A DNA stretch of 64,000 nucleotides from an uncultured delta proteobacterium (lineage in GTDB: Bacteria > Desulfobacterota > Syntrophorhabdia > Syntrophorhabdales > WCHB1-27), in assembly GCA_963810935.1 (NCBI GenBank), contig CAWEPK010000009.1, positions 64,001-128,000 on the forward strand, read 5' to 3'. The notes below the pieces were generated by a model that saw only the letters and a program-made list of their open reading frames with translations, had not been told where the DNA came from and made no database searches. Position numbers and translations under genes: made by a program. How positions within the stretch are numbered: the first letter of the stretch is position 1; each line of letters begins with the position of its first letter. This document shows, in pieces, positions 21,899 to 32,082 of this stretch.

Positions 21899-23312
<1,414 letters not shown>

Positions 23313-23322
23313 GTTGCCTCCT

Positions 23323-24186
23323 TTAGCTGCTCTGCAGCGCCTCGGCGCCGCCTACGATATCCATCATCTCACTGGTGATGCTCTGCTGCCGCGTCTTGTT
23401 GTAGACGAGCGTCAGATGGTCGATCATGTCACGGCTGTTGTTCGTCGCGTTCTCCATAGCCGCCATTCGGGACGCGTGCTCCGACGTCTGCGACTCGATG
23501 AGGGCGTAAAAGATTTTAGTGAGTACGTAATGCGGGATGAAGCGGACGAGTATCGACTCCATGTCCGGCTCGTAGAGGTATTCCATCTCGTCGCCGGTTG
23601 TTTCCGCCGGTTTCAGGGGCAGGAATTCCTCGAACCTCACTTCCTGCTTTATGGCGGATTGGAAGTGCGTATAGATGAGGTAGACCTTGTCGTACTCCCC
23701 TCTCAAATAGAGGTCCGTGAGGTCGTCAGCCATCATGCCCGCTATCTCGGACCCGGCGGTCTTCACTTCGAGCCATTCTTTCTCCGTCTCGATCTTCCGC
23801 CGCCTGAGATAGTCCCTGATCTTCCTCCCAACGAGATAGACGCCTATCTTCTCGTAGTGCGACTTTTCCGAAACGACAAAGCGCTCGACGGCCGACGCCA
23901 CATTAATGTTGAAGGCGCCGGACAGGCCGCGGTCGGAAGCTATGGGGAAGAGAAGGACTCTCTTGACCTCGTCACGCTCGCCGATCAGGGGATGCGCCCC
24001 TTCCGGGATGCGGCCCGCGAGCCTCGAAAGAAGCCCTTCGGCCGCGACGGCATACGCGGTCACTTTCTCAAGCTCTTCCTGGGCGCGCCGGAGCTTTGAG
24101 GCGGAGATCATCCGCATCGTCCGCGTGATCGTCTGCGTGCTCGTTATACTATTGATCTTCCTCTTTACGTCGCGAAGGGTCGCCAT
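23323..24186 (-). CDS. atpG: ATP synthase F1 gamma
   Basis: ITRTMRMISASK, SDRGLSG, SEHASRMAAMENAT, RQQSITSE. Confidence 0.96.
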   Translation of the reverse strand: MATLRDVKRKINSITSTQTITRTMRMISASKLRRAQEELEKVTAYAVAAEGLLSRLAGRIPEGAHPLIGERDEVKRVLLFPIASDRGLSGAFNINVASAVERFVVSEKSHYEKIGVYLVGRKIRDYLRRRKIETEKEWLEVKTAGSEIAGMMADDLTDLYLRGEYDKVYLIYTHFQSAIKQEVRFEEFLPLKPAETTGDEMEYLYEPDMESILVRFIPHYVLTKIFYALIESQTSEHASRMAAMENATNNSRDMIDHLTLVYNKTRQQSITSEMMDIVGGAEALQSS

Positions 24187-24187
24187 G

Positions 24188-25697
24188 TTACGCCTTAAAA
24201 CGCTCCTTGAATGCGTCGAGGGCCTTGTTCAGGGCGCCCTCTATGCTTTCGTCGATCGCTTTCTTCTCACGCACGGCGGTGAATATCTCCGCGTGCTCCT
24301 TTTCCATATAGGCAAGCATCTCTTGTTCGTAGCGCGGTATGGCCGCCTCCGTGTAGATGTCCGTGAAGCCGTTCGTACCCGCATACAGGAGCACTACCTG
24401 CTTCTCCACGGGGTACGGCGAATAGAGGCCCTGCTTCAGCAACACCTGCAGGCGCGCGCCCCTTGAGAGAAGAGCCTGCGTGGATTTGTCCAGGTCGCTG
24501 CCGAATTTCGCAAAGGCCGCCATCTCCCTGTACTGGGCCAGGTCGATCCGGAGGCGTCCCGCCACCTGCTTCATTGCTTTTGTCTGCGCGTTGCCGCCGA
24601 CGCGGGAAACGGAAAGGCCCACGTTGATGGCCGGCCTGTTGCCTGAGTAGAAAAGCTCGGGCTCGAGGTAAATCTGGCCGTCGGTGATGGAGATAACGTT
24701 GGTGGGGATATAGGCGGAGACGTCGCCCGCCTGGGTCTCGATGATCGGCAGGGCGGTCAGAGAGCCGCCGCCGTGCGCGTCGTCCCACTTAGCCGCCCGC
24801 TCCAGGAGCCTTGAATGCAGGTAGAAAATGTCGCCGGGATACGCCTCCCTGGCCGGCGGCCTCCTGAGAAGCAATGAGAGCCTGCCTGTAAGCGACAGCA
24901 TGCTTTGACAGGTCGTCGTAAGCGATCATGGCGTGGCGCCCGGTGTCCCTGAAATACTCGCCCATCGACGTCCCTGCGAAGGGGGCCAGGTACTGAAGGG
25001 GTGCGGTGTCGCTTGCGGTCGCCGCGACGACGGTCGTATATTCCATTGCGCCGTTAGCCGTGAGCACGTCCACGATCCTTGCAACAGACGACCTCTTCTG
25101 GCCGATAGCAACGTAGATGCAAAAGACGTCCTTCCCTTTCTGGTTGAGAATCGTATCGATGACGATGGCCGTTTTGCCCGTGCCCCTGTCGCCGATTATC
25201 AGCTCGCGCTGTCCCCTGCCGATAGGGATCATTGCATCGATGGCTTTGATGCCCGTCTGGAGCGGCTCCTTCACCGGCTGCCTTACCACGACGCCCGGCG
25301 CCCTCTGCTCGACGTTTCTGTACTCCGTGGCCTCGATGGGGCCTTTGCCGTCAAGGGGGACCCCAAGGGCATCGACTACGCGCCCGACGAGACCCTCGCC
25401 GACCGGGACCTGGGCTATTCTGTTCGTCCGCTTGACGAGGTCGCCTTCCTTGATCTCCGTGTAGTCGCCGAAGATGACGGCGCCTATGTTGTCTTCCTCA
25501 AGGTTGAGAACCATGCCGGTGACGTTGTGAGGGAATTCGACCAACTCGCCGGAAACGGCGTTTTCCAGGCCATATATCCTTGCGATGCCGTCGCCGACTG
25601 AGATAACGGCGCCCGTCTCCTGGAGATCGATCTCGCGCTCGAAGCCCGATATCTTCTGCTCTATAATCCTGCTTATCTCATCTGCCTTGACTGCCAT
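24188..25697 (-). CDS. atpA: ATP synthase F1 alpha; +1 frameshift at 24881-24882 (probable sequencing error)
   Basis: [24 protein letters not shown] then [16 protein letters not shown] in shifted frame. Confidence 0.95.
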
Positions 25698-29509: not shown

Positions 29510-29608
29510 GATACCTCCCGTAATGATTAACCTTAAGGAGGGGTGGACCTTGCCCCCTCGCGATATTAAAGTTAGCATAAATCTATTGTTTCTGTTATAG
29601 TAAACCCG

Positions 29609-31081
29609 ATGCGTATCAGGCTTGCGATTTTGGTAATCCTTTGCTTCGCCCTCGTCGCGTGCGGCAGCAGGAAGCAGGAAATAAAGAAGGTGGACAGCCC
29701 GGGGGCGCTCTACGTCCAGGGCATTGCCCACATGAAGAAAAAAGAGTGGGACAAGGCCATACAGGCATTCGGCAAGGTCCGGGAAAATTATCCCTTCGAT
29801 CCGATAGCTCTCGTAGCGCAGATAAAGCAGGCGGACTCCAATTTCGAAAAAAAGGCATACCCCTCGGCAGCCATAGCGTATGAGGATTTCGTCAACAGCT
29901 ACCCGGAAGACGAGAACGCAGCGTACGCCCTCAGACGCCTTGCGGAGTGCTACGAAAAGACGTCTCCGATTGCAGAGCGGGACCAGTCAAATACGTTCAA
30001 GGCAATCGAGCGATTCACCTTCCTGAAGAACCGTTATCCCGCCAGCCCTTACGCCAAAGACGCGGACGCGCACGTCAATAAGCTTACGGAGAAGCTGGCC
30101 GCAAGGGAAGTCTTCGTAGGCGAGTTCTACCACAGGTGGAAGAGATACAACGCCTCCATCATCCGCTTCGAATACTTTCTGCAAAAGTATCCGGACGCCA
30201 AAGACAGGGACAAAGCGCTCTATTACATCGCCCTCGATTACCAGGAGCTTCAGGATTCCGACAAGTCCCAGGCTTACCTCGACAGGCTGAAAAAGGAATA
30301 TCCGAAGAGCCGCTATCTCGGCGGGTCCATAAAGCGGGAGCGAAGGAGCCTCCAGGTAGCGAGCGTGAAGCCCGCTGCTGCTGTTGCAGCACCTGCTGTT
30401 GTGGGCGCGCAGCCGGCAGGCGCAGCTCCGGGGGCGCAGACTGCCATTGCCCAGCCTGCAGCGCCCATTGTGGCGTCTTACGAGGAGAAGAAGCCGAGGC
30501 AGATCGATTTGGAGCCTGTCGATCCACCAAAGAGTGGTGAAGCACAGCCCGCGCTAAAAGAAGGCGCGCAGGGCGCCCCCGACAAGGCCGCTAAAGACGC
30601 CGCCGCAACGGTTAAGAAAACGGACGACGGGAAAAGACTAGAGGCGAAGAAAACGGACGACGGGAAAACCTCTCTGGGCTTCTTCTCCGAGAAGAAACCC
30701 GTCGACGTCGTGGCGGATTCGATGGAGGGGCTCGAAAAGGGCAAGATCATACTTTTCAAGGGCAATGTAATCGCCAAACAGGTTGACCTTTATCTATTCT
30801 CGGACATGCTTACCGCCTATGTGAATGAAGAGACAAACGAGATCGACAGGGCCAAGGCCGAAGGCAACGTTAAGATAGTCAAGCTCGACAGGACAGCGAC
30901 CTGCAAAGAGGCGTTCTTTTATAACGACAAGGGAGAGATCATCCTGAAAGGGGACGTAATAGTCTTCTCGGGCAAAGACAAGGTCTCCGGCGACGTCGTA
31001 ACGTATTATATCAACGAGGACCGCGTTCACGTCATGGGCCAAAAGGACAAACGGGCCAAGGCGCTGATCAGCCCCAAATGA
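29609..31081 (+). CDS. bamD: lipoprotein fusion: BamD (TPR) + low-complexity linker + LptA/OstA beta-jellyroll domain
   Basis: Lipobox LVAC; YPFDP, ERDQS, YPASPYA, KLAAREVFVGEFY (BamD); PVDVVADSM..FKGNVIAKQ..AEGNVKI..GDVVTYYINEDRV (LptA). Confidence 0.85.
   Translation: MRIRLAILVILCFALVACGSRKQEIKKVDSPGALYVQGIAHMKKKEWDKAIQAFGKVRENYPFDPIALVAQIKQADSNFEKKAYPSAAIAYEDFVNSYPEDENAAYALRRLAECYEKTSPIAERDQSNTFKAIERFTFLKNRYPASPYAKDADAHVNKLTEKLAAREVFVGEFYHRWKRYNASIIRFEYFLQKYPDAKDRDKALYYIALDYQELQDSDKSQAYLDRLKKEYPKSRYLGGSIKRERRSLQVASVKPAAAVAAPAVVGAQPAGAAPGAQTAIAQPAAPIVASYEEKKPRQIDLEPVDPPKSGEAQPALKEGAQGAPDKAAKDAAATVKKTDDGKRLEAKKTDDGKTSLGFFSEKKPVDVVADSMEGLEKGKIILFKGNVIAKQVDLYLFSDMLTAYVNEETNEIDRAKAEGNVKIVKLDRTATCKEAFFYNDKGEIILKGDVIVFSGKDKVSGDVVTYYINEDRVHVMGQKDKRAKALISPK
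30614..30668 (+). repeat. 22-bp direct repeat (33-bp period, KKTDDGK x2) in the fusion linker
   Basis: AAGAAAACGGACGACGGGAAAA at 30614 and 30647. Confidence 0.9.
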
Positions 31082-31549: not shown

Positions 31550-31714
31550 TCAGGTGAAGCGGCCGCGGGGCTCGCAGCATGTCGGCGCATCCACTTTCTT
31601 CGCAGCAGGCTTGACGTCCTTGCTCCCGCAGTGGACGCATTCGGGTGCCTTATCGTCCGCATTCATCTCAAAAGATTTGCCGCATTTTTTACAATCGTAC
31701 TTCTTGCCTTCCAT
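31550..31714 (-). CDS. small FmdB-like zinc-ribbon protein
   Basis: YDCKKCG..FE..CVHCGS; AAGGAGG RBS before ATG 31714. Confidence 0.7.
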   Translation of the reverse strand: MEGKKYDCKKCGKSFEMNADDKAPECVHCGSKDVKPAAKKVDAPTCCEPRGRFT

Positions 31715-31893
31715 AGGCTGGTTATCCTCCTTTGCGTGCACGTGAATCGTGTTTTGTCTAAATAGTATAATGTGCCGGAACGCCAATTACAACCCGGTGC
31801 AAGGCCGGGTGCTTGCGCCGCTGAAACGCAGACGACCACAGGAGTGATCTAAAGAACGGGGGAGACGCCCAAAAAGGCGCCCGTGCATCCTAT

Positions 31894-32082
31894 CTATAGA
31901 AGAAAGCTGGCCTTTTCCTTGCCCTTGAGAATGCCTACGTAGACGTCCTCATCCGACAGCTCATTGCTGCCCATTTCCTTTCTTACCTGACTGCTTCCGC
32001 AACTCGGGCAGAAAATGTTATTTTTGCTGAGGGGAAGAAATAAATACCCACACAGATCACAAGCGTATTCCTCAGGTATCAT
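31894..32082 (-). CDS. small zinc-ribbon protein
   Basis: YACDLCG..CPSCGS; AAGGAGG RBS upstream. Confidence 0.65.
   Translation of the reverse strand: MIPEEYACDLCGYLFLPLSKNNIFCPSCGSSQVRKEMGSNELSDEDVYVGILKGKEKASFLL

Follow-up and report, generated by a model that had tools for sequence, protein, structure and literature searches.

The gene at positions 29609..31081 (+) of a 64,000-nucleotide stretch of DNA from an uncultured delta-proteobacterium (contig CAWEPK010000009.1, positions 64,001 to 128,000; referred to below as the window) encodes a lipoprotein in which two components of outer-membrane biogenesis are joined in one polypeptide. Its N-terminal part is BamD, a subunit of the β-barrel assembly machinery (BAM), and its C-terminal part is a β-jellyroll of the type found in LptA, the bridge protein of lipopolysaccharide (LPS) transport (Lpt). 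The two are separated by a long disordered linker, and all are contained in a single unbroken open reading frame (ORF) of 490 amino acids (aa). This fusion architecture is real and conserved, and it is apparently undescribed. The fusion is also the only convincing BamD of its genome, which belongs to a lineage that named records put in the Syntrophorhabdales.

The N-terminus of the BamD-LptA fusion, MRIRLAILVILCFALVAC, contains the lipobox L15-V16-A17-C18 at the end of a signal peptide (residues 1 to 18, 29609..29662, +), with Cys18 as the predicted lipidated first residue of the mature protein. Cys18 is invariant across both homologue alignments, one diverse and one of closer relatives, and a lipobox-like motif is present in 109 of 121 fusion proteins. 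This is followed by the tetratricopeptide repeat (TPR) domain of BamD, also called YfiO (residues 28 to 238, 29690..30322, +), which is recognized by NCBIfam TIGR03302 (residues 4 to 236, 198.3 bits against a cut-off of 81.4) and by Pfam YfiO/BamD PF13525 (residues 31 to 219, 117.4 bits, cut-off 25) as well as by the structural model and its superposition. The linker, delimited by model confidence and composition, is made up of 125 aa (residues 239 to 363, 30323..30697, +). The LptA-type β-jellyroll occupies the last 127 aa (residues 364 to 490, 30698..31078, +), and is complete, with its N-terminal edge motif (KPVDVVAD) and its C-terminal edge both present; the stop codon stands at 31079..31081 (+). 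Residues 367 to 471 match Pfam LptD_N/LptA PF03968 with 58.8 bits (cut-off 20.4). No match to the LptD barrel family PF04453 is found within the ORF, so the fusion is not an LptD, and neither a second signal peptide nor a second start codon precedes the jellyroll. The order of BamD, linker, and jellyroll is the same in all 121 proteins tested.

Structurally, the same three parts are seen in an AlphaFold2 model based on 15 homologues. TPR helices span residues 31 to 238 with a predicted local distance difference test (pLDDT) score above 90, residues 240 to 362 are unstructured (pLDDT below 50), and residues 366 to 488 form an all-β domain with pLDDT of about 70 to 89. In a Foldseek comparison with the PDB, the BamD part superposes on BamD of the Escherichia coli BAM complex (5d0o_D) with a template modeling (TM) score of 0.90 and a root-mean-square deviation (rmsd) of 1.7 Å over 200 columns, and it matches BamD of Rhodothermus marinus (3qky) with an E value of 7.9e-15. 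The jellyroll is matched to LptA (2r1a_E, TM 0.80, rmsd 2.5 Å) and to LptH (4uu4, TM 0.77). The C-terminal 157 residues also give an end-to-end sequence alignment with LptA chains of known structure (8onu_A, E 4.9e-4; 2r19_A, E 1.2e-3), and both edge strands are present in the tethered jellyroll in the model and in the alignment.

The linker differs in length among relatives, from 43 to 199 aa with a median of 140, and is rich in Ala, Lys, Pro, Gly, and Glu in all 121 two-domain proteins. No conserved cleavage motif stands out within it. A preliminary description of this DNA, made from its letters, had reported an in-frame duplication in the linker; a repeat does exist, in that KKTDDGK occurs twice, yet what was called a duplication is a weak, low-complexity tandem repeat with a period of 15 nucleotides (nt), 3.4 copies, 63% matches, and a score of 44 (30616..30669, +). 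A G-F-F/G-F-G stretch directly preceding the jellyroll is conserved; free LptA paralogues carry it at their start too, and it is therefore best regarded as part of the jellyroll module.

It might be argued that assembly or gene calling has merged two neighboring genes, as the assembly contains probable indel errors elsewhere. Within the window (22182-25697, -), atpA is split into two overlapping ORFs, of which 24789-25697 covers profile positions 2 to 274 and 24188-24901 covers positions 273 to 502, and the ORF 22182-23312 matches just the first 126 of the 462 positions of the atpD profile. Both the split atpA and the short atpD are probable indel errors of the assembly, or else pseudogenes. 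Given such an imperfect assembly, comparative evidence matters. Both PF13525 and PF03968 are found in all 120 homologues listed, of 211 found, and the two halves are adjacent in 41 of 41 Syntrophorhabdales genomes, in most of them within one open frame. Short-read contigs from four runs of one study, which possibly belong to the same sampling campaign as the assembly and may not be independent of it, cover the gene with substitutions and one in-frame 3-nt deletion; one such contig spans 30203-30889, the entire linker, with no frame break. The deletion, at 30319 in the linker, is seen in contigs of two of the four runs and is natural variation in leash length within the population. No RNA runs are listed among the 6 sequencing runs that contain the stretch.

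Separate genes for the two halves in relatives were considered for the genomes G010 and G018 and rejected. Their frames overlap within the repetitive linker, with no second start or signal peptide, and to judge from this overlap the split halves are a frameshift and not two genes. These were the two genomes inspected; the frames also differ in G001, G007, G012, G019, and G020, several of which have stop codons or low completeness. Together with the same single frame in hundreds of independent assemblies and in an isolate genome, the short-read contigs across the linker, and the lack of a start codon or signal peptide before the jellyroll, this leaves an artifactual merge with a negligible chance of being the explanation. 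The preliminary description had proposed one 490-aa frame with a lipobox, a BamD TPR region, a linker, and a C-terminal LptA domain, and had thought an artifactual merge unlikely. Profiles and model bear out that layout, the C-terminal domain is an all-β jellyroll with fold matches to LptA and LptH, both Pfam families recur in every homologue listed, the linker holds neither a stop nor a frame-breaking indel in the contigs that cross it, and the same layout is found in relatives, where the two split cases are overlapping frames.

No other TPR protein of the genome comes near the fusion as a BamD match, the fusion scoring 120.6 bits and the others at most 28. In five of five genomes from other families, the fusion likewise matches the full profile with 99 to 144 bits, while partial TPR matches reach at most 53. 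As the fusion is the best match by such a distance in the genomes tested, it appears to be the cell's BamD wherever it occurs. BamA is also present in the window's genome. A survey of BAM subunits reports BamA and BamD, and no BamB, BamC, or BamE, in delta-proteobacteria (Anwari et al. 2012, PMC3359395); LptA and OstA are not mentioned in the accessible part of that survey.

The jellyroll is better conserved in sequence than the BamD part. When homologues are compared with the window's copy, 98 of 117 have a higher identity in the jellyroll than in BamD (medians 65% and 57%); 3 of the 120 were left out of this comparison because too few columns aligned. Eighteen core positions, from P364 and D370 to P489, are common to the fused jellyrolls and nine free LptA paralogues of the phylum. 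In the same comparison, the fused group has only two positions of its own, and hardly any losses are particular to one group. With this high identity, the 18 common core positions, and both edge strands in place, the tethered jellyroll is strongly constrained and resembles a working LptA.

The remainder of the Lpt pathway shows a second fusion. The fusion gene is found between rsmG and trxA, and the lptB locus lies on a different contig, in the order kdsA - kdsD - 305-aa ORF - lptB - rpoN - hpf - ptsN - hprK - rapZ. The 305-aa ORF (genome G000, contig C8, L008:6713-7630, -) is made up of LptC (PF06835, residues 16 to 177) followed by an LptA-type domain (PF03968, residues 187 to 286). Its model contains an N-terminal membrane helix (residues 3 to 26) and continuous β structure over residues 43 to 300, with a pLDDT of 84 and a predicted TM score (pTM) of 0.73. 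It matches LptC (4b54_B, TM 0.78; 3my2, TM 0.75) as well as LptA and LptH (2r1a_C, TM 0.75; 4uu4, TM 0.70). Full-length LptC-LptA in one frame is found in 40 of the 41 genomes of the order, the miss being a 66%-complete genome. The preliminary description had raised the question of whether lptA is missing from the lptC-lptB locus of this genome; it is not, as the locus carries the LptC-LptA fusion.

A census of PF03968 across the 41 genomes yields three classes of frame, which are BamD-fused (417 to 697 aa), LptC-fused (303 to 352 aa), and LptD (616 to 850 aa). No frames of free-LptA size with PF03968 are found in these genomes, save for a few broken assemblies. Since PF03968 is confined to these three classes, every periplasmic Lpt jellyroll in the Syntrophorhabdales is predicted to be attached to a membrane, through LptC, BamD, or LptD. 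The LptC-LptA fusion at the lptB locus, together with the lack of a detectable free LptA in the order, is new here.

LptB, LptE, LptF, and LptG are present in the window's genome, and a canonical LptD with N-terminal jellyroll and barrel is found in 36 of 40 relatives. The suggestion that LptD is absent from the lineage was rejected on these counts and on the neighborhood of the gene, as the window's genome also lacks the FolC-like gene that adjoins LptD in its closest relative. In the closest relative that has an LptD (L116, genome G002, contig C29), the LptD frame is shifted after about residue 460, probably through an error of assembly, with the rest of the barrel encoded in a different frame.

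The BamD-LptA fusion is conserved throughout the class. Of the 83 genomes of this class that are at least 85% complete, 81 have a jellyroll match, mostly in frames of 417 to 598 aa, and the cultured Syntrophorhabdus aromaticivorans UI encodes the fusion with both domains present. Across the phylum, 225 of 251 sampled genomes contain a jellyroll match. Outside the class, these matches are free LptA-sized frames of about 170 to 220 aa, large frames, or both. Of the loci fetched there, namely 16 (15 large frames and one free LptA) and one further large frame, 10 of the large frames are fusions of BamD and LptA, and they come from 6 other families. Homologues of a divergent member carry both domains in 59 of 60 cases, in metagenome-assembled genomes labeled Deltaproteobacteria or Pseudomonadota. 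The preliminary description had spoken of this lineage, but the fusion is not confined to it, since it occurs in at least 6 further families of the phylum, several of which keep a free LptA.

Other combinations of the jellyroll are found in the phylum as well. Two BamD-LptA fusions of family f23, L022 and L032, are 885 and 937 aa long and contain an extra C-terminal NTF2-like Cds6_C domain (66 to 76 bits). Three other long proteins (L023, L031, and L033, from families f53, f34, and f19) end in an LptA-type jellyroll and have an ordinary signal peptide and no BamD; their N-terminal modules are TolB_N-like (22.6 bits, barely above the cut-off) or FlgT_M-like (under the cut-off). Attachment of an LptA unit to some other periplasmic module seems to recur across the phylum. 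In a tree of the jellyroll domains, the LptC-fused jellyrolls sit on a very long branch and the LptD_N domains form a distant outgroup. A single clade of 18 BamD-fused jellyrolls is neither rejected (approximately unbiased (AU) test, p 0.19) nor demonstrated, and the 136-column tree lacks resolution at depth.

The proposal of the preliminary description, a physical coupling of outer-membrane protein insertion to LPS delivery or to LptD maturation, is plausible. LptA units connect head to tail through their edge strands, and E. coli LptA fractionates with both membranes. We tentatively favor, at a little short of an even chance, a reading in which the jellyroll of the fusion is the outer-membrane-proximal unit of the Lpt bridge, docking on LptD and meeting the LptC-LptA chain beside BAM. 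After Sec export and lipidation, the fusion would sit in the BAM complex through its BamD part, and the leash would free the C-terminal edge of the jellyroll to engage LptD at its N-terminal jellyroll. The N-terminal edge would then meet the free end of the LptC-LptA chain anchored in the inner membrane, so that the bridge would be closed from two tethered halves beside BAM. An LptA unit would in this way be held at the outer membrane, and LPS delivery would adjoin the site where outer-membrane proteins, including LptD itself, are inserted. A bolder extension of this bridge model, to which we give clearly less than an even chance, is that the LPS bridge of the Syntrophorhabdales has no soluble part at all. 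It would consist of the inner-membrane LptC-LptA chain and an LptA unit on every BAM, each BAM would nucleate its own LPS conduit, and the supply of outer-membrane proteins and of LPS would be coupled in space and in number.

Several observations weigh against the tethered jellyroll as a bridge unit. LptD was not found in the window's genome with PF04453, PF19838, or a relative's LptD as queries. With LptE present and the FolC-like neighbor gene of LptD also missing, we attribute this to a gap in the 93.5%-complete assembly. LptD_N and the tethered jellyroll open with a common edge motif of the P-V-D-I type, and the LptA end of LptC-LptA could dock straight on LptD with no tethered unit between them. 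In at least 5 other families the fusion coexists with a free LptA, where the tethered unit is not needed to complete the bridge, and an accessory or regulatory role would account for this coexistence at least equally well. The fusion falls 7.7 bits short of the LptA equivalog model TIGR03002 (64.0 bits against a cut-off of 71.7). We also count against the bridge that a single origin of the fused jellyrolls is not demonstrated by the domain tree.

The main alternative places the jellyroll in the maturation of LptD. Here it would capture the N-terminal jellyroll of LptD while BamA and BamD fold the barrel, so as to hold, chaperone, or check it, with no steady-state carriage of LPS, and would be a built-in equivalent of E. 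coli accessory factors such as LptM, LptY, or BepA. We regard this as rather unlikely, and it is compatible with the bridge. It draws on what is described for E. coli, where BAM folds the barrel of LptD around LptE and the β-taco of LptD is contacted by two lipoproteins, LptM and LptY (PMC12644819), and where the TPR protein BepA promotes the maturation of LptD at BAM. The lack of BamB, BamC, and BamE in delta-proteobacteria (PMC3359395) would leave room for other accessory modules, and in the several families where the fusion stands beside a free LptA it is not needed as a plain bridge unit. However, the jellyroll keeps its whole conserved core and both edges and is more conserved than BamD, which exceeds the needs of a one-sided clamp, and with no free LptA found in the Syntrophorhabdales there is an obvious transport job for the tethered unit.

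Alternatively, the fusion may be a precursor, cut in the linker by a periplasmic protease to release a soluble LptA near the outer membrane, in which case BamD and LptA would both be of the ordinary kind once mature. A linker of such length, disorder, and variability should be open to proteases, the jellyroll lacks its own signal peptide and depends on BamD for export, and no other free LptA was found in the order. We nonetheless give cleavage only a small chance, as a conserved cleavage motif is not evident, the G-F-F/G-F-G stretch belongs to the jellyroll module, and families with a free LptA gene also keep the fusion, which a production route alone would not explain. It is also conceivable, if improbable, that the jellyroll has left LPS altogether and was recruited for its hydrophobic groove or edge strands as a chaperone for BAM clients, either unfolded outer-membrane proteins or the acyl chains of lipoproteins. 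Such a module would suit its attachment to BamD, a handler of incoming substrates, and the shortfall against the LptA equivalog model, and LptA-type domains of the phylum are joined to other modules too, as in the TolB_N-like proteins and those with an added Cds6_C domain. Yet the best matches in both sequence and fold are LptA proteins, and 18 core positions are held in common with free LptA of the phylum, against only two that set the fused group apart.

Upstream of the gene, a promoter-like site is found at 29572..29601 (+) by consensus match only (TTAGCA, 18 nt, and TATAGT with a TG). The -10 box TATAGT ends 8 nt upstream of the ATG, and no Shine-Dalgarno sequence is visible between 29572 and 29608. 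With the box this close to the ATG and no visible Shine-Dalgarno sequence, the mRNA of the fusion may be leaderless or nearly so. Downstream, two small ORFs of 78 and 62 aa (31550-31786, -, and 31894-32082, -) lie between trxA and a gene of the metallo-β-lactamase fold. Each contains two CxxC pairs and is zinc-ribbon-like; the 78-aa ORF has no NCBIfam match.

How the insertion of proteins by BAM is coordinated with the delivery of LPS by Lpt in Gram-negative cells is an open question on which the fusion bears. To our knowledge, this coordination has been studied almost solely in E. coli. The links there are indirect, as LptD is a client of BAM and LptM, LptY, and BepA act on LptD. In the Syntrophorhabdia, by comparison, a covalent link of the essential BamD and an LptA unit is fixed in the whole class and is also found in several other families of the Desulfobacterota, and we therefore argue that BAM and Lpt work within leash distance of one another in these bacteria. 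The fusion is also a ready-made design with which to ask whether an LptA tethered to the outer membrane can sustain LPS export and whether a BAM tether shifts the site of LPS insertion. An order apparently lacking free LptA bears, in addition, on the debate that sets LptA as a stable bridge against LptA as a more dynamic unit.

Databases already label such proteins 'BamD' or 'LptA', and no published description of a natural BamD-LptA fusion was found in a literature search that covered sources other than subscription journals. Compared with known BamD proteins (5d0o chain D; 3qky), the fusion is alike in its lipobox, five-TPR fold, family scores, and superposition, and differs in the 125-aa disordered linker and 127-aa LptA-type jellyroll added at its C-terminus. 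The described BamD proteins that we know of end after the TPR domain or carry a short tail. A 60-residue extension in alpha-proteobacteria is mentioned in PMC3359395. With LptA (YhbN; E. coli 2r19 and 2r1a) and LptH (Pseudomonas 4uu4), the fusion has in common the β-jellyroll (TM 0.77 to 0.80), the end-to-end alignment, and the core positions of free LptA. Unlike these proteins, its jellyroll is tethered to an outer-membrane lipoprotein and not soluble, lacks a separate signal peptide, and is encoded outside the lptC-lptB locus.

The N-terminal jellyroll of LptD (PF03968, with PF04453 for the barrel) belongs to the same Pfam family and is likewise attached to the outer membrane, at the distal end of the bridge. 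In the fusion, however, the 26-strand barrel of LptD does not follow the jellyroll, and in relatives LptD is a distinct protein that itself carries an N-terminal jellyroll. LptM and LptY (PMC12644819) and BepA of E. coli are associated with the outer membrane or with BAM and touch the LptD jellyroll or its maturation, and the fusion may hard-wire coupling of this kind. They are unrelated to the jellyroll in sequence and fold, and none is joined to a BAM subunit. The LptC-LptA protein of the same genome follows the same principle, in which a soluble bridge unit has been made a tethered one, although its tether runs to the inner membrane through LptC and not to the outer membrane through a subunit of BAM. 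Placed among these systems, the fusion is best classed as two known families combined in a new domain architecture.

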